Part shown: piece after piece, positions 8,026 through 64,000 of the stretch | How the letters are laid out: the number at the start of each line of letters is the position of its first letter | Numbering within the stretch: the first letter of the stretch is position 1 | Sequence record: NC_004928.1 | Length of the DNA stretch: 64,000 nucleotides | Direction: 5' to 3' (one strand) | From: Escherichia phage RB69 | Program-made: the position numbers and the translations under genes | The notes under the pieces: generated by a model | Told to the model about the DNA's origin: nothing | Seen by the model: the letters and a program-made list of their open reading frames with translations, nothing else | The model's database searches: none

Positions 8026-8051
8026 CGTTTATAAAGCAAAAAAGGAACTCC
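8026..8051 (-). terminator. rho-independent terminator (GGAACUC-UUCG-GAGUUCC followed by U-run on minus strand)
   Basis: 7-bp stem, tetraloop, T-run on transcribed strand, just upstream of gene 47. Confidence 0.55.
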
Positions 8052-8273
8052 GAAGAGTTCCTATCCACATAGTACACCGTACAGAGGCTCATTTGAACTT
8101 TTAAATCGAATGGGCTTGTATGTAATAGTTCCTTCGGCTTTAGCTTTATCATAAGACTCTTTAAAACGTCTCGTTCTTTCTGCTTTGCCTTTACGGATTT
8201 TATCGAAATTTTCAGAGGTCAGGTCGTTCGTCATGCATAATTATCTCTCAGAAAATACCTAAACCGATTTCTC

Positions 8274-8480
8274 TCATCGTTTCCACCATTTCTTAACTTG
8301 AAATGAATCAACCCACACGAGTTGTTTTGGGTCTGCCTTTACAATAGGCGGACAAATTTCTGTAATAGAACCGTCGTGATATTCCTTTTCAGAAATTTTA
8401 ACACAAAGAGGACCTCCCAATTTAAGGGTGAACCCTGCGTTCAGCTTCAGACGTTTAAACTTTGTTTGAACTAGCGCCAT
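8274..8480 (-). CDS. hypothetical protein
   Basis: Track ORF 8274..8495, start trimmed to internal ATG. Confidence 0.35.
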   Translation of the reverse strand: MALVQTKFKRLKLNAGFTLKLGGPLCVKISEKEYHDGSITEICPPIVKADPKQLVWVDSFQVKKWWKR

Positions 8481-8778
8481 TAATGATGTCCTCAATAGCT
8501 TGACGAGTAGTAACCCACTGGATTTTAATTAACTTGTCATTGTATGGTTGTCGTAGAATATCCCGAGATTTCTTAATAGCATATTCGTAAGCTTCGAAGT
8601 TGTTTTGAATTGCTGCTTCTTGAGCATGAGCATAAAGACGGTTTAGTTCAAAACGATTCTTTTTAAGAATCTTTTCGGATTTTTTACGTGCTTCAGCTTC
8701 ATTTTTCTTTTGGATTTCTTGTAGCATTTTAGCTACTGCATCTTCTGCTTCTTTATTTTCAATAATCTCGGTAGTCAT
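8455..8778 (-). CDS. hypothetical protein
   Basis: 107-aa ORF in the 55-47 interval. Confidence 0.45.
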   Translation of the reverse strand: MTTEIIENKEAEDAVAKMLQEIQKKNEAEARKKSEKILKKNRFELNRLYAHAQEAAIQNNFEAYEYAIKKSRDILRQPYNDKLIKIQWVTTRQAIEDIINGASSNKV

Positions 8779-27498: not shown

Positions 27499-27989
27499 TT
27501 AGGTTCCCAATCAACAATCACAATTTCTAGTTTAGTGGAATACGTATCTAAAATCTCTTCGATGACATCCCAGTTTCCGCCACCGATACCTGCACCAATT
27601 CTTGGCATATAAATTACAGGCTTTGTTATCTTATTCTTTCCGAATTCATTTAATTCTATTATACAATTCATTAAAGCAGAGTACTCAAAATTAGGTCCCG
27701 GCTCAAACTGCGTATAAAGATTAAAGCAATAAGCTTTATGGGTCTTAAAATATTTTTCATAAACCGAATAAGTCCCGAGTTTAGACTCGTCTCCAAATTC
27801 GGTTTGAAGTTTATCGGCTTCCAGAATTTTTGGATAAGCCTTTGCTAATTGTCCTGCCACACCACCGCCCATTGTATGAAAACAATTACATCCATGAGCA
27901 ATATTATTACCTTTAGAAAACAGGGCGACAATATCGCCCTTGATATAGTTTTTAATCACTTGCTGCAAGTCCTCTAGTATAAGAGTCAA
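27495..27989 (-). CDS. macro-domain-like protein (putative ADP-ribose binding/hydrolase)
   Basis: GDIV...HGCNC...GGGVAG and IGAGIGGG motifs typical of macro domains; 164 aa. Confidence 0.5.
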   Translation of the reverse strand: MTLILEDLQQVIKNYIKGDIVALFSKGNNIAHGCNCFHTMGGGVAGQLAKAYPKILEADKLQTEFGDESKLGTYSVYEKYFKTHKAYCFNLYTQFEPGPNFEYSALMNCIIELNEFGKNKITKPVIYMPRIGAGIGGGNWDVIEEILDTYSTKLEIVIVDWEPK

Positions 27990-33722: not shown

Positions 33723-34181
33723 TTATAGGAGGGTAGTGAGCACCTTATATAATGATTTGCCCATTACATATTCCCATTGAGAAGGTTTAATTAAAGCGAA
33801 TGCATCAAATTCAGGAATCTGTCGTCCGTCTGGGAATGTATGATAGGAATTACAAACACTGTTTCTGAATTGCTCGTGCTCTACAGGGATGGTATATAGG
33901 AACAGATGAATATTCTTATTGTCTGAGTAATGATGTTCACCTAGGTCTTTCAGGAAGGCAGGGTCATATTGTGTAAACCCAGTTTCTTCTTCGCATTCAC
34001 GAATAGCGGCTTCAATAGGAGATTCGCCAGGTTCGACACGGCCTTTAGGAATATCCCACCGATGAGCTAATGCACCTTTAGGACGAGAACCAGTTACACG
34101 CCCCATGAATAATTCTTTATCTTCGGTAAGGAAAATAATACCGGCTGATAGTTCTTTCACTTTATTTTTCTTACTCATCAT
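33723..34181 (-). CDS. nudE: Nudix hydrolase NudE
   Basis: Nudix box GRVEPGESPIEAAIRECEEETG; position after e as in T4. Confidence 0.8.
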   Translation of the reverse strand: MMSKKNKVKELSAGIIFLTEDKELFMGRVTGSRPKGALAHRWDIPKGRVEPGESPIEAAIRECEEETGFTQYDPAFLKDLGEHHYSDNKNIHLFLYTIPVEHEQFRNSVCNSYHTFPDGRQIPEFDAFALIKPSQWEYVMGKSLYKVLTTLL

Positions 34182-34422
34182 CTCGGTCCCATGATTTGGC
34201 CATTAATTCGGACATAAATTCTTCAATGCGCGTTTCTTTAGATGGACTTTCACTATTAGAGACCGCAAGTTTGTAATCTGCAATAGGACGGAACAAATCA
34301 AGGTCCATATCAAGGTCGTCTTTGATTTGTTCTTCAGGTACATCTGTATCATACGTATACAGATAACTATCAAGTGATTCTGATTTAACGTAAATTGCTA
34401 TACTCATCTCAAATTCCTGCAT
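34171..34422 (-). CDS. hypothetical protein
   Basis: 83-aa acidic ORF. Confidence 0.4.
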   Translation of the reverse strand: MQEFEMSIAIYVKSESLDSYLYTYDTDVPEEQIKDDLDMDLDLFRPIADYKLAVSNSESPSKETRIEEFMSELMAKSWDRDDE

Positions 34423-34901
34423 TCGGTAATAAAACGTTCAACTTCATTATTCTTGGCCTTTATCTTGTCTTTACGTTCCTGTAAACTACTTTTAACAAGA
34501 TTAATAATGATGCCTACAGTACCTCCACCAATAATACCACCAATAATACTTACAATAGTAGATGCTAATAAGATAGCGATAATATCTGGTACAGCAAAGG
34601 CACTTACTTTAGTACTAAAAAACCATACCGACGGTACAAATATAATCCATCCTGTTATCCATTGGCACTTATTGAAAAACTTTTCAAGCTCAGCTTGGGT
34701 TGTTCGTATTACTTCATCGATAGGTTGATATCCATTAATGTATCTGTTCACGATAATACCTGCTGGTTTGTCGATTTTAAATGCTTGACAATGGTGTTTC
34801 ACTAAGTAGGATGGACATCCTGTCCAATCTACTGAATAGTATGAAATACCTTCGTCGCCACCGTCCATGTTTGACCAGTGAATTTTCTGTATCATTACCA
34901 A
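34404..34901 (-). CDS. membrane protein with conserved C-terminal ERFITECR tail
   Basis: 165 aa; C-terminal hydrophobic helices; shares the C-terminal tail family (see findings). Confidence 0.5.
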   Translation of the reverse strand: MVMIQKIHWSNMDGGDEGISYYSVDWTGCPSYLVKHHCQAFKIDKPAGIIVNRYINGYQPIDEVIRTTQAELEKFFNKCQWITGWIIFVPSVWFFSTKVSAFAVPDIIAILLASTIVSIIGGIIGGGTVGIIINLVKSSLQERKDKIKAKNNEVERFITECRNLR

Positions 34902-35581
34902 CCTTCCATAGGGAATTCCAGATAAACTTGAGCGTTGACACGAATTTCATTGGTAATCTTTTTAACTCGGTCCGTATTACGAGATACACGTCCGAACCAA
35001 CGCCATCCATTACTAATTGCACGAGAACCAGTGTGCCATGTTTGCCAATCAAACTGAAGAAGAGTACGGTCTGGAGCTTCCCATTTCTCTAGTTCGCCTT
35101 TTTCGATTTTTTCGAGGACTTCTTTGTGCCACTGGCGATAGATAAGTTCGCCATCAGGAATCTGACTGAACTCTGCAGTTCCTGTTGCAAAATGAGTAGG
35201 ACACACATCAGCGTTAACAAGACCAAGAATATGTTCAGACAAATAGCGAGGATTGTCATAGTCAGGTGGTCCTGCAGTAATAAAGTGTTGACCAACCGGA
35301 ATATCTGGGCGTGGTACATCGTCATGGTGATAACCTGGGATAGCAGGATACCAACCAGGCATCAGCATGTGGACTCGTGAATCAAATACTACATCCGAGT
35401 CTTTCCAATCGTCAGGGAGATTTTGGATAAAGCTACGAGTAATTGGACCGCCGTTATCAAAAGCAAAATTCAAATCGCAATTAAAGAACATAGGCTCGTT
35501 TTTAATCTGGTCGTTTTTAATCGCATGAGCAAAACCACCTACTGCACGAGCTTGACTATTAAACACTTTAGAACTATTCAT
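34895..35581 (-). CDS. hypothetical protein, possible 2OG-Fe(II) oxygenase-like fold
   Basis: candidate HxD (YHHDD), distal His (WHTG) and RxS (RVS) arrangement; weak. Confidence 0.35.
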   Translation of the reverse strand: MNSSKVFNSQARAVGGFAHAIKNDQIKNEPMFFNCDLNFAFDNGGPITRSFIQNLPDDWKDSDVVFDSRVHMLMPGWYPAIPGYHHDDVPRPDIPVGQHFITAGPPDYDNPRYLSEHILGLVNADVCPTHFATGTAEFSQIPDGELIYRQWHKEVLEKIEKGELEKWEAPDRTLLQFDWQTWHTGSRAISNGWRWFGRVSRNTDRVKKITNEIRVNAQVYLEFPMEGW

Positions 35582-35582
35582 A

Positions 35583-35888
35583 TTATTTTCCTCGACATTC
35601 TTTAATGAAATTTTCTAGATTGGTAGATTCAATAGCTTTTTTACGAGCTTCTGCGTGTTCTTCTTCAGACAATTTACGTTTATAATTGACCCAGACATTA
35701 TGGTCGAAACTAGTCGTGGCATATAATAACAATGCTCCAACGAATAGCAAAAACGGCGATAAGAATACAAAACCAGGAACACCATCCATATCGTAAGCCT
35801 TTTGTAATACTGCAACAGAAAGGGCTGCGTAAAAAAGTGATGCAAATATTGTTAAAAGACCAATTCGGTTGGTTTCGCCTAATTTCAT
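35583..35888 (-). CDS. small membrane protein with C-terminal ENFIKECR tail
   Basis: 101 aa, two hydrophobic helices. Confidence 0.5.
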   Translation of the reverse strand: MKLGETNRIGLLTIFASLFYAALSVAVLQKAYDMDGVPGFVFLSPFLLFVGALLLYATTSFDHNVWVNYKRKLSEEEHAEARKKAIESTNLENFIKECRGK

Positions 35889-35907
35889 AATATTCTCCTC
35901 ATGTTTA

Positions 35908-35946
35908 ATAGGACTACTATAATATAGTCCTATAATTGTGTAAACA
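35908..35946 (-). promoter_or_regulatory. early promoter cassette, canonical copy (TAGGACTA/TAGTCCTA)
   Basis: GTTTACA -35, -10 within 8-bp inverted repeat. Confidence 0.5.
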
Positions 35947-35957
35947 GTTTTGCGAAA

Positions 35958-36914
35958 TTATTTGAAAGGTTTTACCATATGGAAATTTTGTTTGAAACGT
36001 TTGACGTAATCGTCATGTCCTAAACTTTGGTACATACTTACTACTTTGCTGTAGTTTTCCCAGGCATACTCACGGAACCAACCAGAGGTGATGCTTGTAC
36101 AGACTTTTTCCAATGCCATCATAAAACTGGCTTCAGGGTTAATTTTAAAGTCATTAGGAATTTGAGAACGTTCTAATGCTAGTACACATGATTCTTCGTA
36201 TACACCAGCCAATTTGACCATTTCTGGTAATGATTCGAACTTCTCGCGTGAGGTCATGACTTCAGAGCCGTCTTTCATATAAAATGTATACGCTGGACGG
36301 TCTGTTAGTGCAATGGCTTCATGAATAGTATCATGGTCATATGTATAGATGTCATCTTTAAAGAACGCACTTTTAGAAGTGTCAAGAACCGGGTGAGCAT
36401 AGTTCAAGGTTTCTTTCTGGCGTTTCAGCATAATTTCAGTAAGTTCATCGTTCAGTGTAACACCTTTACCACGAAGATACTGAATATGGTTCATAGTCTT
36501 TAAAAAGAATGGATTATTTTTCTTGAAACGATGAGACATCTTAATTGCAAGACATATCTCAGGAGTTGCCCAGTAAAACCCGTTCAAACGGTCTTTAGTC
36601 AAATTTTTCTTGGCGTATTTTAAAAGGTCATAAGAAGACGTGAAATCTTCAGGAGTGAGTTCACCGATTAATTCACGGACATTAGTGATTGCCGGAACAA
36701 TATATGCTTCAAAATGAGTTTCGCGTCCATTATGGAAGCATTTGAAAACTTGGACATCAGGGTTATCTTGGTGAACATATACACCCATCATTTGATTTTT
36801 GAATGCATTCCAAGAACATTGGTCCGCAATAAAGTCCCAATCGCTATTTTTGATAGCGCTAGAATCAATAAGACCGTGATAGTGAAGTGCACGAGAACCA
36901 ATAACCAACATCAT
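35958..36914 (-). CDS. hypothetical protein (318 aa); weak nucleotidyltransferase-like or HD-like motifs
   Basis: N-terminal GSRALHYHG...SDWDF and later DHD; assignment tentative. Confidence 0.45.
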   Translation of the reverse strand: MMLVIGSRALHYHGLIDSSAIKNSDWDFIADQCSWNAFKNQMMGVYVHQDNPDVQVFKCFHNGRETHFEAYIVPAITNVRELIGELTPEDFTSSYDLLKYAKKNLTKDRLNGFYWATPEICLAIKMSHRFKKNNPFFLKTMNHIQYLRGKGVTLNDELTEIMLKRQKETLNYAHPVLDTSKSAFFKDDIYTYDHDTIHEAIALTDRPAYTFYMKDGSEVMTSREKFESLPEMVKLAGVYEESCVLALERSQIPNDFKINPEASFMMALEKVCTSITSGWFREYAWENYSKVVSMYQSLGHDDYVKRFKQNFHMVKPFK

Positions 36915-36942: not shown

Positions 36943-37194
36943 TTAAATTTCACGACATGCGATATCATATTCATCCCAGAGGTCATCGTGTGAAGCCTCT
37001 ACCAATGGAACGATTGTGCCGTTTATGTCTTCATTATAAGGGCAAATTGTACAGTGCGCATCTTCGAATCGGATGCCTTTGTGTTCAGATTTTTTATAAC
37101 GCATATCGAATATCTTTGCAAACTTTTCACGAGTAATGGTTTTAGCAACCACTTTGGTTCCGATACTTTCGTAATAAATCATTGTGGACTCCAT
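36943..37194 (-). CDS. hypothetical protein
   Basis: 83-aa ORF with CxxC..H motif. Confidence 0.45.
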   Translation of the reverse strand: MESTMIYYESIGTKVVAKTITREKFAKIFDMRYKKSEHKGIRFEDAHCTICPYNEDINGTIVPLVEASHDDLWDEYDIACREI

Positions 37195-37200
37195 TTAATT

Positions 37201-37240
37201 TGATAGGACTACTATAACATAGCCCTATCTTGTTGTAAAC
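37201..37240 (-). promoter_or_regulatory. early promoter cassette (canonical family)
   Basis: GTTTACA..TAGGGCTATGTTATAGTAGTCCTATCA. Confidence 0.5.
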
Positions 37241-37244
37241 TGTT

Positions 37245-37442
37245 TTAGCAAGAATAACTAGATGATACCCAGCCTTGAACAGTAATACTATTATTTGATA
37301 ACGAGATTGCGTCCTGGAGATTCAGACCTGCGTTATCTTCAATCCATAATGTAACTTCTTCGCGTTCTTCTGTTGCAATTTGGAACAGGTTTTCCAGAGC
37401 AGCTACTGCCGTACGTACAGCACAATCTAATTCGCGAGACAT
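37245..37442 (-). CDS. small protein, member of a tandem mosaic trio
   Basis: 65 aa; C-terminus GWVSSSYSC shared with 37452..37724. Confidence 0.45.
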   Translation of the reverse strand: MSRELDCAVRTAVAALENLFQIATEEREEVTLWIEDNAGLNLQDAISLSNNSITVQGWVSSSYSC

Positions 37443-37451
37443 ATTGTTTCC

Positions 37452-37724
37452 TTAGCAAGTGTGAGAAGATGCGACCCAACCACCAGTTTCGAGGCTCAGG
37501 TTGTAGTCGTATTGGTAAACGTCAGCCCATTCAGCATAGCCGTTTTTTGTACAACGTTCAAGATCGGCTTTAAGATGTCCGGGTGAATGATAGGTTCCAC
37601 CCATACCATAAGCTGGGTACAAGTCGAATGTTGTGTTTTGTTTATCAGCAATTTCTTTGGCAGCCTCAATAGCTGCATAGATTTTTGCTACAGCTTCAGT
37701 CAGTTCGGTTTGTTCTTTAGACAT
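37452..37724 (-). CDS. small protein, member of a tandem mosaic trio
   Basis: 90 aa; YGMGGTYHSPG motif shared with 37825..38040 and GWVASSHTC tail shared with 37245..37442. Confidence 0.45.
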   Translation of the reverse strand: MSKEQTELTEAVAKIYAAIEAAKEIADKQNTTFDLYPAYGMGGTYHSPGHLKADLERCTKNGYAEWADVYQYDYNLSLETGGWVASSHTC

Positions 37725-37824
37725 AATGATTCCTTAGCACAACGCAGGAGACGAAACCCAAGCACCTTCAGTAATAACGTAACCATTACCTTCACGCTTA
37801 ACATCGCCACCATTATTTTCAATT

Positions 37825-38040
37825 TCATTTTTCATACCACTGGGATACGATTTCACCCTTAGGATAATAAGTACGACCGCTACCATAATCACCTACAGAA
37901 AATGATACGGCATATTGGTCTGCGATCTTTGTTGCTTCTTCTTCGATACGTTCAGCTTGATTCAGAAGTTTATAAATTGCATCTGAAGCGGATTTGGCAT
38001 CATTAAATTCTGGTACTTTAATTTCGATAATCTTACTCAT
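37825..38040 (-). CDS. small protein, member of a tandem mosaic trio
   Basis: 71 aa; YGSGRTYYPKG motif. Confidence 0.45.
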   Translation of the reverse strand: MSKIIEIKVPEFNDAKSASDAIYKLLNQAERIEEEATKIADQYAVSFSVGDYGSGRTYYPKGEIVSQWYEK

Positions 38041-38396
38041 TTTCTACATTCCTTAATAAAGTTTTCTATTGTTTCATTTTCACGTTTAGCTAGGAGTTCA
38101 TTATAACTAATCATTTGAGAAGCGTAAACCTTTTTATTTTTCTTGTTATGGTTTATAAAATCGTAGTAAAAATAGACTACAGTACAAAATGATGCGATGG
38201 ATGCAAAGGCTTGGGTATACCGTAAGTCCTGCCATTGGTCTGTGAATCCGCCAGTGTTTCCTATAAATCCTAACACAACGCCGTCAATAAGAAATCCAAC
38301 TAATCCAAAGGCAAATCCCATGCCAATACTCATAATAAAAATTAGAATGTTCTCACCAAGAGAAGGCCATACGGTTAAGAGTTGAGGCTTTTGCAT
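38037..38396 (-). CDS. membrane protein with C-terminal ENFIKECRK tail
   Basis: 119 aa, glycine-rich TM helices. Confidence 0.5.
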   Translation of the reverse strand: MQKPQLLTVWPSLGENILIFIMSIGMGFAFGLVGFLIDGVVLGFIGNTGGFTDQWQDLRYTQAFASIASFCTVVYFYYDFINHNKKNKKVYASQMISYNELLAKRENETIENFIKECRK

Positions 38397-38770
38397 CTTA
38401 TTTCCTTAACGAATTCCATAGCTTCTTCATATTCATACTTTTTAACAGCTTCATCATACTGAGCTTGGGCTTTTGCGCACTGAACTTTCCACTCACGAAC
38501 TCGAGCTCTGTGATGACGGCCTTGGTGCCAATATCCTACCCAATTAATAGGCATTAATAAAAACGGTACAATAAGTGGTGCGACGAACATTAATGAAAAT
38601 GCTGCATCAGACGATATAACTTCACTAGAATCTAAAACAGCTCCTATAATCATAAAGATTAAAAATGCTAAAGCTAAAATAGGGCCAAATAGTACTTCAT
38701 TAGGAATTAATTTACGTTTGTATTCGTATGCCCAGGGCTTACTTGGCATGTATAGGGTTGGCTTTGACAT
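38375..38770 (-). CDS. membrane protein with C-terminal EFVKEIRCK tail
   Basis: Track ORF 38375..38800 trimmed to MSKPTLY. Confidence 0.45.
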   Translation of the reverse strand: MSKPTLYMPSKPWAYEYKRKLIPNEVLFGPILALAFLIFMIIGAVLDSSEVISSDAAFSLMFVAPLIVPFLLMPINWVGYWHQGRHHRARVREWKVQCAKAQAQYDEAVKKYEYEEAMEFVKEIRCKSLNS

Positions 38771-39362
38771 ATTCTCTACATTCCATAATAAATTGCTCAA
38801 GGATTAAATTGTTAGTGAAATTAGGACTAACAACCATAGTTTCATAAAGCGCATCAATAGCACTTAAAGCATCAACTCTTTTAAGCAAAGGCTTGCCTTC
38901 ATACATAGTTTCAGAATCGATGATTAACGTAAAGTAATATTTTTTATTATCGACTAGAACTTCTGTATCGATATAAAACATATTAGACCTCAGAAGCTTA
39001 TCTCTAAAACCATAATAATCTTCAGAGCGTTCGCTGATATATTCCCATTCAGTGTTTAAACAACAAACAGACCATGTAGGAGCAACGAAATCAGTGAATC
39101 TAATATCATGGTCTGCAACTAGTTTAGCAATAGCTCCGATATCATGAATCATAATACCTGGGGCTAATAAAGATTTTCTGCTATGGCTAGCCGTTTTCTC
39201 GGTGGTCTCATAAGAAGACGACCAGTACCATTTACGTCCGGTTGCAACATATCGTAATGAATCAACTAAAGACGTAGGTGGATTTACCTTATCTCGGAAC
39301 TCTTCAAACATTGAGTCAATATCATTATTTTGGTTTCGCATGTTAACTCCTTTATTATCCAA
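38739..39362 (-). CDS. hypothetical protein with C-terminal EQFIMECREY tail
   Basis: 207-aa ORF. Confidence 0.5.
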   Translation of the reverse strand: MDNKGVNMRNQNNDIDSMFEEFRDKVNPPTSLVDSLRYVATGRKWYWSSSYETTEKTASHSRKSLLAPGIMIHDIGAIAKLVADHDIRFTDFVAPTWSVCCLNTEWEYISERSEDYYGFRDKLLRSNMFYIDTEVLVDNKKYYFTLIIDSETMYEGKPLLKRVDALSAIDALYETMVVSPNFTNNLILEQFIMECREYVKANPIHAK

Positions 39363-42782: not shown

Positions 42783-42861
42783 TGGTCGAGACAGAAGGAT
42801 TCTAACCTTCAACCTACGGATTAGAAGTCCCCGTTGCTCTATACAATTGAGCTATGCCTCG
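42783..42861 (-). tRNA. tRNA-like gene, Arg(UCU)-like anticodon context with non-canonical loop
   Basis: 7-bp acceptor stem, D-stem GCUC/GAGC, T-arm GAAGG-UUAGAAU-CCUUC, encoded CCA; anticodon arm only folds with a 9-nt loop. Confidence 0.4.
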
Positions 42862-42867
42862 AATATA

Positions 42868-42941
42868 TGACCCAGACCAGATTCGAACTGGTAACCTTTC
42901 CCTTATGAGGGGACTGCTGCTAACCGTTGAGCTACAGGGCC
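42868..42941 (-). tRNA. tRNA-like gene, CAU anticodon context (Met/Ile), imperfect D-arm
   Basis: T-arm ACCAG-UUCGAAU-CUGGU, acceptor stem with one U-U mismatch, loop CUCAUAA. Confidence 0.35.
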
Positions 42942-62837: not shown

Positions 62838-64000
62838 ATGATCGAATTAAAAAGTCTACCATATGTTGATGGCCCTCCTGACGAGGGTCAAAAACGTTTA
62901 AACTGGATTAAAAATTCAGAAGAAATAACTGGCGCTGATACGTTATACGGTTCTGAAGGAGTAATGAACCGTCCAATAACAGAAGTTCAACGAAATGTAG
63001 AAACAATTAACGATAACGTTAAGACTATCGCAGAATCTTTAGATACCGCTAATGCTGATATTGTCACAATTAAAAGTATCTTGGATGTTTCTGGTGACGT
63101 GGATGCTTTAGCACAAATTGGACATAACACTGATGATATTGAAGTATTAAAACACACTGTAAATTCACACGGTGTTGATATTTTAAACACTGAAGAAAAA
63201 CTAGATGATACTATTGCTAATATCGGAGTAGTTAATCCAGAAACAGATTCGGTGTATCGTACGGTGCGTAACGACCTTCTTTGGATTAAAACCGAATTAG
63301 GGCAATATACTGGACAAGATATTAACGGTGTCCCAACCGAAGGTAATGAAAGCACCGGGATGAAACGACGTATTATTACTAACAGTTCAGTGTTGGTTGA
63401 CCAAGGCGTTCGTTTAACCGAGTTAGAAAATAAATTTGCCGATTCTGATGTTGGGGCTCTGACAACCGAAGTTGAAAACCTCCGTCAAGAAATAGGTCCT
63501 AGACCATCGTTAACAGTACCGGTTTACACTCGTTTATCCGGTATTGATTCATCCATTTCTATCCAAACTAGAGATATTGCGGCATTAAAAGATTTTGTTG
63601 GATATCCTAATTCAACCGCTATTAAAACTCAAGTCGAGGCCAATCGTCTTTCTATATCAACAATAAATTCAGACATTAACTCGCCTGGCGGTATTAAACC
63701 ACGTTTGACAACGTTAGAAACTACTATAGGCTCTCCAGATTTACCAACTACTCTTCAGGGTAAGATCAAATTAAATACCGATTCCATTTCAGGTATTAAC
63801 ACAGTTTTAGGTGTTGATTCTTCTAGTGGTTTACGTTTTAACGTAGCATGGCTTAATCAGGTGGTTGGCGTTGATTCAAATGGTGGACAACCTGAACCGG
63901 CTGGTTCACTTTTATATAGGACTCGTATTCTTGAAACTGGTGTTACTGACCTAGGCAATAACATTCAAAACGTTCAAACCGAATTGGGAACTAATTCGTC
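62838..64000 (+). CDS. wac: fibritin (whisker) Wac, N-terminal portion (ORF runs off window end)
   Basis: ATG at 62838; MIELKSLPYVDGPPDEGQKRLNWIKN resembles T4 Wac N-terminus; open to position 64000. Confidence 0.85.
   Translation, partial: MIELKSLPYVDGPPDEGQKRLNWIKNSEEITGADTLYGSEGVMNRPITEVQRNVETINDNVKTIAESLDTANADIVTIKSILDVSGDVDALAQIGHNTDDIEVLKHTVNSHGVDILNTEEKLDDTIANIGVVNPETDSVYRTVRNDLLWIKTELGQYTGQDINGVPTEGNESTGMKRRIITNSSVLVDQGVRLTELENKFADSDVGALTTEVENLRQEIGPRPSLTVPVYTRLSGIDSSISIQTRDIAALKDFVGYPNSTAIKTQVEANRLSISTINSDINSPGGIKPRLTTLETTIGSPDLPTTLQGKIKLNTDSISGINTVLGVDSSSGLRFNVAWLNQVVGVDSNGGQPEPAGSLLYRTRILETGVTDLGNNIQNVQTELGTNS

Follow-up and report, generated by a model that had tools for sequence, protein, structure and literature searches.

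Nucleotidyltransferases of the polymerase beta (Pol-beta) type that have a dedicated partner protein, and accessory enzymes carried in operons that rebuild nicotinamide adenine dinucleotide (NAD+), are the described systems closest to the locus considered here. In Mycobacterium tuberculosis, MenA1, an antitoxin of 68 amino acids (aa), is encoded upstream of the nucleotidyltransferase MenT1 and blocks its active site (PMC10435456). The minimal Pol-beta nucleotidyltransferase MntA covalently adenylylates its partner HepT, with which it forms a type VII toxin-antitoxin system (PMC7641770). RyDEP of phage DyoEdafos is an accessory enzyme that feeds the NARP pathway; its gene is inserted in a NARP1 operon and is functionally coupled to it (PMC13232231). 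The window analysed here, a stretch of 64,000 nucleotides (nt) of Escherichia phage RB69 (NC_004928.1), carries two genes, open reading frame 1 (ORF1) and ORF2, that resemble these systems in some respects and depart from them in others. We propose that ORF1 is an Fe(II)/2-oxoglutarate (2OG) oxygenase with a lead towards NAD+ and ADP-ribose, and that ORF2 is a nucleotidyltransferase working as a module with small, tail-tagged proteins; taken whole, the proposal has a somewhat better than even chance of being right. The two are probably functionally separate accessory genes, expressed early.

Both are real, conserved genes in the accessory DNA of Mosigvirus. A first-pass annotation, made from the letters alone, had placed them between membrane-protein genes and had remarked on an H-x-D...H...R-x-S arrangement in ORF1 and on a GS...SDWD stretch and a DHD motif in ORF2. 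The ORFs are there exactly as called (34895..35581 and 35958..36914), on the minus strand, encoding 228 and 318 aa from ATG starts, and the motifs lie where they were reported. Among relatives, H85, D87, H183 and R198 of ORF1 and the GS, DxD and H194-D195 residues of ORF2 are invariant, so the short motifs are not chance matches here; S24 and S200, also part of the reported motifs, are not invariant. The observation is confirmed and its interpretation partly supported. ORF2 is built as follows.

35958..36914, minus strand: ORF2, 318 aa, ATG start, a Pol-beta-type nucleotidyltransferase fused to DUF7275 (phrog_2141), homolog of RB69ORF134c
36600..36914, minus strand: N-terminal nucleotidyltransferase domain of ORF2, about aa 1-105, with Pfam DUF7277 at aa 2-101
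36000..36557, minus strand: C-terminal helical domain DUF7275 of ORF2, aa 120-305 by Pfam

The AlphaFold2 model of ORF2 (predicted local distance difference test, pLDDT, 93; predicted template modelling score, pTM, 0.87) presents the alpha-beta-alpha-beta-alpha-beta nucleotidyltransferase core in its N-terminal half, with the hG[GS]...Dh[DE]h signature and a third carboxylate. The best structural match of this half is MenT1, and ANT(2'') and LnuA are among the top matches. Across 55 relatives, reaching down to about 46% identity, G6, S7, D25, D27 and E69 are invariant, and GS...DxD is kept in 103 of the 105 homologs at the loci collected. The G6-S7...S24-D25-W26-D27 stretch lies at nt 36834-36899, and the 17 residues between G6-S7 and the DxD exceed the classical spacing of 9-13. 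The model and these residues make the Pol-beta nucleotidyltransferase fold a solid assignment. An HD-type fold, offered as the other possibility by the first-pass annotation, did not hold up: D193-H194-D195...H198 (nt 36321-36338) is not set in an HD helical fold with an H...HD...D metal site, and the phosphohydrolase reading is rejected on fold.

The DHD motif lies in DUF7275, which is the most conserved part of the protein and has no structural match. Its invariant residues include K125, H128, H174, H194-D195, H198, E240-E241, C243, E248-R249 and C272, and D193 is conserved in at least 90% of the relatives. The helix that follows the core carries invariant K125 and R129, a possible counterpart of motif III. 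In the proposed mechanism, D25, D27 and E69 would hold two Mg2+ ions, G6-S7 would contact a nucleoside triphosphate, and the nucleoside monophosphate would be transferred to a hydroxyl acceptor, with DUF7275 supplying partner or substrate binding. A metagenomic protein of 308 aa (P0174) has DUF1190 (PF06693) in place of the nucleotidyltransferase domain, so DUF7275 can combine with another N-terminal module.

The ORF2 family is large, with more than 2,000 clusters at 90% identity and 732 phage records, and is common in phages of Aeromonas, Gordonia, Acinetobacter, Pseudomonas, Vibrio and Streptomyces. A scan of bacterial and archaeal genomes, one per species across 185,579 species, returned five loci, all in metagenome bins, which makes the family essentially phage-only. 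Sequence and profile searches of ORF2 against Protein Data Bank (PDB) chains gave nothing meaningful, NCBIfam and PADLOC gave no usable matches, and literature searches under the DUF, PHROG and RB69 ORF names found nothing on either family.

Three small ORFs lie upstream of ORF2 in the window and end in variants of one motif, W-x-x-S-S-x-x-C.

37734..38040, minus strand: small partner protein copy 1, split by a frameshift (37825..38040 plus 37734..37892), end ...AWVSSPALC
37452..37724, minus strand: small partner protein copy 2, 90 aa, phrog_899, end ...GGWVASSHTC
37245..37442, minus strand: small partner protein copy 3, 65 aa, phrog_4882, end ...GWVSSSYSC

Their family is the commonest neighbour in 80 ORF2-homolog loci. 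A hidden Markov model (HMM) of it finds at least one copy, within 1.6 kb, in 94 of 105 ORF2-homolog loci, and at all 94 the small gene is upstream of the ORF2 homolog and on the same strand (median distance 627 bp, maximum 1622 bp), usually in one to three tandem copies and in up to six. Among 67 loci scored as devoid of an ORF2 homolog the sole match was L005, which does carry one; the small genes are absent from every other locus of that set, that is, from each that truly has no ORF2 homolog. In loci outside those used to build the HMM, small genes are present in L005, L174, L175 and L176 and absent from L173.

The proteins themselves diverge rapidly. In 44 diverse members the mean column identity is 19%, and the invariant residues are only the W, one S and the terminal C of the tail; a semi-conserved N-terminal helix and a YG-x-G-x-TYYP stretch are also recognizable. 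The family corresponds to PHROG 899/4882 and has no Pfam family, no PDB relative by sequence or profile and no name in the sources searched; a profile search of a large database returned 'hypothetical protein' entries only. Copy 3 of the window matches the C-terminal motif only, not the family HMM. Copy 1, with a tail reading SSP rather than SSS, likely has one extra T in ...CAGTGG[T]ATGAAAAATGAA...; in ATK47, an annotated relative, the ortholog (L004:8005-8307) is one uninterrupted ORF, and the split reflects either decay of this paralog or an error of sequencing. Nothing in the literature searched describes the module of ORF2 and small proteins, which on that basis is new.

An invariant tail on fast-diverging tandem proteins that are tied to one enzyme is what would be expected of a recognition or modification tag. 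ORF2 would act as a module with one to three upstream small proteins, whose tail most likely enters ORF2, either as the acceptor, through nucleotidylylation of a serine, or as a MenA1-like pseudo-substrate regulator. MntA-HepT provides the model for the tail as acceptor, although the ORF2 partners, unlike HepT, have no HEPN domain and no Rx4-6H motif, and their candidate acceptor is a tail serine, not a tyrosine.

The regulatory role would be taken furthest if ORF2 and the small proteins were a MenAT1-like toxin-antitoxin or host shut-off pair, in which ORF2 would extend the 3' CCA ends of host tRNAs and block aminoacylation while the small proteins, as tail-inserting inhibitors, would time or restrain it. 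MenT1 (PDB 8an4, 8an5), the best structural match, has the same Pol-beta GS...DxD site; its 68-aa inhibitor is likewise encoded on the same strand, directly upstream, an order repeated at 94 of the 94 loci with a detected small gene; and the RB69 genes are apparently early. ORF2 departs from MenT1, however, in lacking any PF08843/DUF1814 match at E <= 1 and any identified equivalent of the DUF1814-specific motif IV, which sets it apart from the MenT/AbiEii family by sequence. It adds the highly conserved 170-aa helical DUF7275, which has no counterpart in MenT, and it resides in lytic phages rather than in bacterial chromosomes, the family being absent from the cellular genomes that are the usual home of toxin-antitoxin systems. 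Its partners are unrelated to MenA1 and AbiEi, and one to six tandem, fast-diverging paralogs that share only their invariant W-x-x-S-S-x-x-C end look more like substrates than like an antitoxin. A toxin-antitoxin pair is on balance rather unlikely. The reading of the tail as acceptor or tag is favoured over it because the paralogs have expanded and cellular genomes lack the family, although the data do not decide between them.

The other top structural matches point to a different kind of enzyme. ANT(2'')-Ia and LnuA (PDB 4xje, 4wh5) act on antibiotics, and ORF2 could by analogy be a nucleotidyltransferase of small molecules or nucleotide signals, or else an RNA-repair enzyme resembling RlaP or the CCA-adding enzymes, with the small genes as syntenic passengers. 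RlaP (PF10127) is, like ORF2, a phage-encoded Pol-beta nucleotidyltransferase, predicted to act in conflict-related RNA repair, and RNA-repair nucleotidyltransferases of phages are well known (PMC7824862). One jumbo-phage lineage (L128, L139, L144, L151, L159 and related loci, mostly on contigs of 355-370 kb) has an ORF2 homolog 1-4 kb from a calcineurin-like metallophosphoesterase gene, with a P-loop plus HAD protein (PNK-phosphatase-like) and a ligase-like KxDG protein nearby, both assigned by eye; such company suggests repair of RNA or DNA ends. The antibiotic enzymes, however, are 160-180 aa long, and ORF2 adds to such a domain both DUF7275 and obligate small-protein neighbours. ORF2 has no PF10127 match at E <= 1 and no RNA ligase beside it in the window, and it is rejected as a member of the RlaP family. 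A linkage that is near-obligate and fixed in orientation across very different phages is hard to square with passive synteny. This explanation is very unlikely, and the module of ORF2 with its tail-tagged proteins is retained.

ORF1 poses a separate problem, and its active-site residues fall within a short stretch.

34895..35581, minus strand: ORF1, 228 aa, ATG start, Fe(II)/2OG oxygenase-fold protein of an orphan family (phrog_1843), no Pfam family
34988..35329, minus strand: stretch of ORF1 with invariant H85 and D87 (35321-35329), H183 (35033-35035), R194 (35000-35002) and R198 (34988-34990)

The first-pass reading of ORF1 as a 2OG-Fe(II) oxygenase is well borne out. The AlphaFold2 model (pLDDT 95.2, pTM 0.91) has a double-stranded beta-helix, or jelly-roll, core, and 59 of its 60 best structural matches are Fe(II)/2OG oxygenases, the top ones being small-molecule enzymes of the PhyH/AsqJ type. 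An alignment of 85 relatives, 31-89% identical to the window protein, has just six invariant columns (G83, H85, D87, H183, R194 and R198), and they include the complete HxD...H facial triad. The same residues are kept in proteins of Gordonia phage Toniann, Bacillus phage G and Serratia phage X20 that are 28-30% identical. H85-H-D87 (nt 35321-35329) sits on a long structured loop, aa 74-115; H183, R194 and R198-V-S200 fall within nt 34982-35035, with H183 on strand 182-185 and both arginines on the next strand, 192-201. S200 varies among the 85 relatives. R194 and R198 thus provide basic residues on the strand after the distal histidine, their role being assigned by position. R194 lies 11 residues beyond that histidine, the spacing found in PhyH. 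With the model, these features make the Fe(II)/2OG-oxygenase fold a solid assignment.

From this arrangement we infer that H85, D87 and H183 would bind iron and that R194 would bind the C5 carboxylate of 2-oxoglutarate, while R198 and other conserved arginines suggest an anionic substrate, which the enzyme would hydroxylate or from which it would oxidatively cleave a group. No curated sequence family accounts for the protein. It has no Pfam match at E <= 1 and no NCBIfam or PADLOC match, and PHROG 1843, an entry with no assigned function, is its only database family. Its 85 relatives gave one weak PhyH match (E = 0.068) and nothing else relevant in Pfam, and single-sequence and profile searches against PDB chains found nothing meaningful. 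Membership in PhyH (PF05721), 2OG-FeII_Oxy or AlkB-type Pfam families is rejected, there being no sequence match above the family thresholds. Given this near-absence of Pfam matches, the label 'phytanoyl-CoA dioxygenase' that sporadically appears in the family holds at the level of fold only. Compared with oxygenases of the PhyH/AsqJ/EasH and prolyl-4-hydroxylase types (for example PDB 6k0e, 4nao, 2a1x and 5c5t), ORF1 has no detectable similarity to the Pfam 2OG families, is very small at 228 aa, has the long HxD loop and a second invariant arginine, R198, and is phage-borne. ORF1 is a superfamily member by predicted fold and active site that stands outside every curated sequence family. An exhaustive search yielded 626 representatives of this family at 50% clustering; it is common in phages of Aeromonas, Gordonia and Mycobacterium. 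Ten longer members of 253-444 aa, considered as domain fusions, contain no Pfam domain.

The substrate is suggested by gene neighbourhood. Of 80 viral ORF1 loci that were fetched, gene-called and clustered by neighbours, 57 are not T-even-like, and in these the commonest neighbour of the ORF1 homolog is a NAMPT-family protein (PF04095), present at nine loci with gaps of 0, 0, 0, 0, 77, 428, 939, 1679 and 2972 bp. The zeros are 4-nt stop/start overlaps (L043, L054, L076 and L083). The partner gene of NAMPT is either Prs-like, the NARP1 arrangement of Adps plus Namat, or a NadM-Nudix fusion, the NARP2 arrangement of NadV plus NadM-Nudix; the naming follows the NARP papers, and Namat was told from NadV by the partner gene only. 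The linked lineages are diverged, their ORF1 homologs being mutually 25-71% identical and their NAMPT proteins 26-48%, and the window ORF1 is 63-71% identical to four of the NAMPT-adjacent homologs. NAMPT lies within 1 kb at 7 of the 57 ORF1 loci and at none of 48 ORF2 control loci (p = 0.015); within 100 bp the counts are five and zero (p = 0.06).

Some distant relatives lie in annotated genomes. Bacillus phage G has, in order, an NrtR-type Nudix regulator, the ORF1 homolog, an isochorismatase/PncA (nicotinamidase-type) gene, NaPRT, KptA and a NadD-like gene. In Pseudoalteromonas phage H101 the ORF1 homolog follows a Prs-like and a NAMPT-family gene by 77 bp, and RtcB is encoded a few genes away from it in mycobacteriophage PegLeg and in Gordonia phage Toniann. 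Overall, NAD+ salvage genes are neighbours of the ORF1 homolog in at least nine diverged phage lineages. ORF1 homologs stand inside or directly after NARP1 or NARP2 operons, as RyDEP does in DyoEdafos. Unlike RyDEP, ORF1 has an oxygenase fold and is not a glycosidase, and the window has ORF1 without NARP genes. The NARP papers examined do not mention an oxygenase, no link between an oxygenase and NadV was found in the searched literature, and, as far as that literature shows, the presence of ORF1 homologs inside NAD+-rebuilding operons is new. The substrate of ORF1 would most likely belong to NAD+/ADP-ribose-centred metabolism or to counter-defence, a real lead of moderate strength rather than a conclusion.

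Two further observations concern the NARP2-type locus L083. There, the ORF1 homolog is directly followed by a 326-aa protein (L083:10655-11635) that matches the Pol-beta palm family PF14792 weakly (E = 4e-4, short of the Pfam cut-off), and a Macro-domain gene (8030-8509) precedes the NAMPT-family gene. The NAD/ADP-ribose-type genes of the window are only nudE, two genes from ORF1, and a Tk.4-type Macro-domain gene at 27501-27959 on the minus strand (PF01661 in homologs), whose family adjoins a NAMPT-family gene or an ORF2 homolog in the non-T-even loci L083, L161 and L070. A weak tblastn match of a NadM-Nudix query at 62943-63152 (E = 6.6e-4, 31% over 80 aa) may mark a further Nudix-type gene close to the window's end.

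ORF1 might instead be an oxygenase of proteins or nucleic acids with no relation to NAD, such as an AlkB-like demethylase or an enzyme that hydroxylates prolyl or arginyl residues of a translation factor; NAD genes would then lie close to it only because accessory genes share hot spots. The 4-nt overlaps with a NAMPT-family gene in four lineages speak against this, as do the homologs embedded in NARP1-type and NARP2-type operons and in the NrtR/PncA/NaPRT cluster of phage G, and the top structural matches of ORF1 are enzymes of small molecules. We consider it doubtful, although it keeps an appreciable share of the probability.

Several points weigh against the proposal as a whole, for both its ORF1 and its ORF2 component. 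The active-site placement of the invariant residues is read from where they fall on the strands of the model rather than from superposing residues, and so is the 2OG-binding role of R194. ORF2 homologs have NAMPT within 10 kb just as often (8 of 48 loci), which makes broad proximity a feature of accessory-gene islands and leaves close adjacency as the only part specific to ORF1; the 10-kb count was rejected as evidence for ORF1 by this control. The statistical support for the ORF1-NAMPT adjacency is modest, and the loci counted are not fully independent of one another. At most ORF1 loci the annotation shows no NAD gene in the vicinity, two metagenomic neighbourhoods of distant relatives contain unannotated small genes only, and the window has no NAMPT, Prs or NadM gene, which means that ORF1 can work without NAMPT, Prs and NadM. 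As for ORF2, 11 of its 105 loci have no HMM match; four of these (L132, L133, L159 and L161) have a motif-only ORF, which in three of the four is downstream and on the opposite strand. One of the three small genes of the window is frameshifted, and a promoter-like site lies between the small genes and ORF2. Gene linkage is silent on whether the small proteins are substrates, inhibitors or co-factors, and the literature searched holds no biochemical account of either family or of such linkages.

The co-occurrence of ORF1 and ORF2 does not make them one functional unit. Outside T-even relatives, one lineage only has both within 10 kb; their co-occurrence in T-even phages is shared descent, and ORF1 and ORF2 are therefore two separate findings. 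A common task had nevertheless been conceivable in the making of hypermodified DNA: Mosigvirus DNA contains arabinosylated 5-hydroxycytosine, and the pathway in principle needs oxidation and sugar-nucleotide steps (PMC13326640). In RB69, however, hydroxylation is by a ThyA homolog (gp48), and UDP-arabinose is made by gp52:53, the published step using a MurU-type sugar nucleotidyltransferase plus a kinase (PMC13326640). The published gene set (p003, p028, p045-055 and p159) does not include homologs of ORF1 or ORF2 (PMC13326640), ORF1 being placed outside it by its position beside p134. Both families are also common in phages of other hosts, for example Aeromonas and Gordonia. A shared role in hypermodification is largely refuted and highly improbable, and in this respect the nucleic-acid-modification role suggested by the first-pass annotation is not borne out.

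The surroundings of the two genes are those of an RB69-like coliphage. The region is 96-98% identical to that of Mosigvirus relatives such as JM10, mogra and APCEc01. ORF1, ORF2 and all neighbours discussed are on the minus strand, and the locus lies between nudE and homologs of the e.3/e.4 membrane-protein genes. In transcription order, e.4- and e.3-like membrane proteins are followed by the three small ORFs (38040 to 37245), an 83-aa ORF (37194 to 36943), ORF2 (36914 to 35958), a 101-aa membrane ORF, ORF1 (35581 to 34895), a 165-aa membrane ORF, an 83-aa ORF, nudE, lysozyme e and denV. Annotation of ATK47 identifies ORF2 as the counterpart of RB69ORF134c (NP_861824), which is p134 by accession offset. 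ATK47 uses RB69-specific ORF names and no T4 gene names over the ORF1/ORF2 stretch, which marks it as accessory DNA relative to T4. Both ORFs are likewise absent from the T4-numbered gene set of this closely related annotated Mosigvirus, in agreement with the earlier view that neither is a T4 core gene. The other features of the locus are listed here.

36943..37194, minus strand: 83-aa Cys/His-containing ORF (phrog_3723) between the small proteins and ORF2
37211..37239, minus strand: early-type promoter-like site, TTTACA-17-TATAGT, TG-extended, ahead of the 83-aa ORF and ORF2; a consensus match only
35916..35944, minus strand: early-type promoter-like site, TTTACA-17-TATAGT, ahead of the 101-aa membrane ORF and ORF1; a consensus match only
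33723..34181, minus strand: nudE, a Nudix hydrolase gene, two genes downstream of ORF1

The best sigma-70 or T4-early-like promoter matches in the region are all on the minus strand and all in intergenic gaps. In a promoter and terminator scan the total number of matches was not above that in shuffled sequence, so that the best sites are suggestive only by where they lie and on which strand, and no late-promoter motif was found near the ORF1 and ORF2 genes. Early or middle expression of ORF1 and ORF2 from separate starts is likely on this sequence evidence. The 83-aa ORF at 36943-37194, which reads HCTICP...SHDD...IAC, occurs only in T-even-like loci by neighbour clustering and is not core to the module of ORF2 and small proteins.

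The membrane-protein neighbours that had been noted for the locus are also present. Both flanking ORFs, 34404..34901 and 35583..35888, encode hydrophobic proteins, the first matching a PHROG annotated as membrane protein and the second doing so weakly. They belong to a group of five mostly hydrophobic minus-strand ORFs (T4 e.3/e.4/e.5-like; phrog_2203 and relatives) at 34404-34901, 35583-35888, 38037-38396, 38375-38800 and 38739-39362. All share the motif E-x-F-[IV]-x-E-[CI]-R at or near the C-terminus, in the versions ...ERFITECRNLR, ...ENFIKECRGK, ...ENFIKECRK, ...EFVKEIRCKSLNS and ...EQFIMECREYVK..., and two of them flank ORF1. The five are apparently paralogs that have kept a common cytoplasmic tail. 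Adjacent genes for tRNA-Arg(TCT) and tRNA-Met(CAT) lie at 42783-42941 on the minus strand, about 6 kb upstream of ORF2 in transcription order.

At the level of fold the result is ordinary and was already hinted at by sporadic 'phytanoyl-CoA dioxygenase' and 'nucleotidyltransferase' labels, and if neither linkage holds, ORF1 and ORF2 are an ordinary pair of accessory enzymes. The analysis establishes the folds, the invariant residues and the gene linkages, whereas cofactors, chemistry, substrates and biological roles are inferred. A stronger, joint version can be framed, though it is unlikely to hold in full. ORF2 and the tail-tagged proteins would be an undescribed, phage-restricted protein-tagging system in which ORF2 nucleotidylylates, or is gated by, the W-x-x-S-S-x-x-C end of diversifying small effectors. 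The enzymes of the ORF1 family would act oxidatively in NAD+/ADP-ribose conflict, for example by destroying an ADP-ribose-derived immune signal or stripping ADP-ribosyl adducts by AlkB-like oxidative cleavage, alongside NARP operons and Nudix and Macro enzymes.

Both ORFs represent large families of phage 'hypothetical proteins', and once they are placed in enzyme superfamilies, with their active sites intact, they can be assayed. The near-obligate pairing of ORF2 with tail proteins points to a dedicated enzyme-partner system that is almost exclusive to phages. That ORF1 homologs recur in NAD+-rebuilding operons suggests an accessory activity, so far unrecognised, in the arms race over NAD+-depletion defence.

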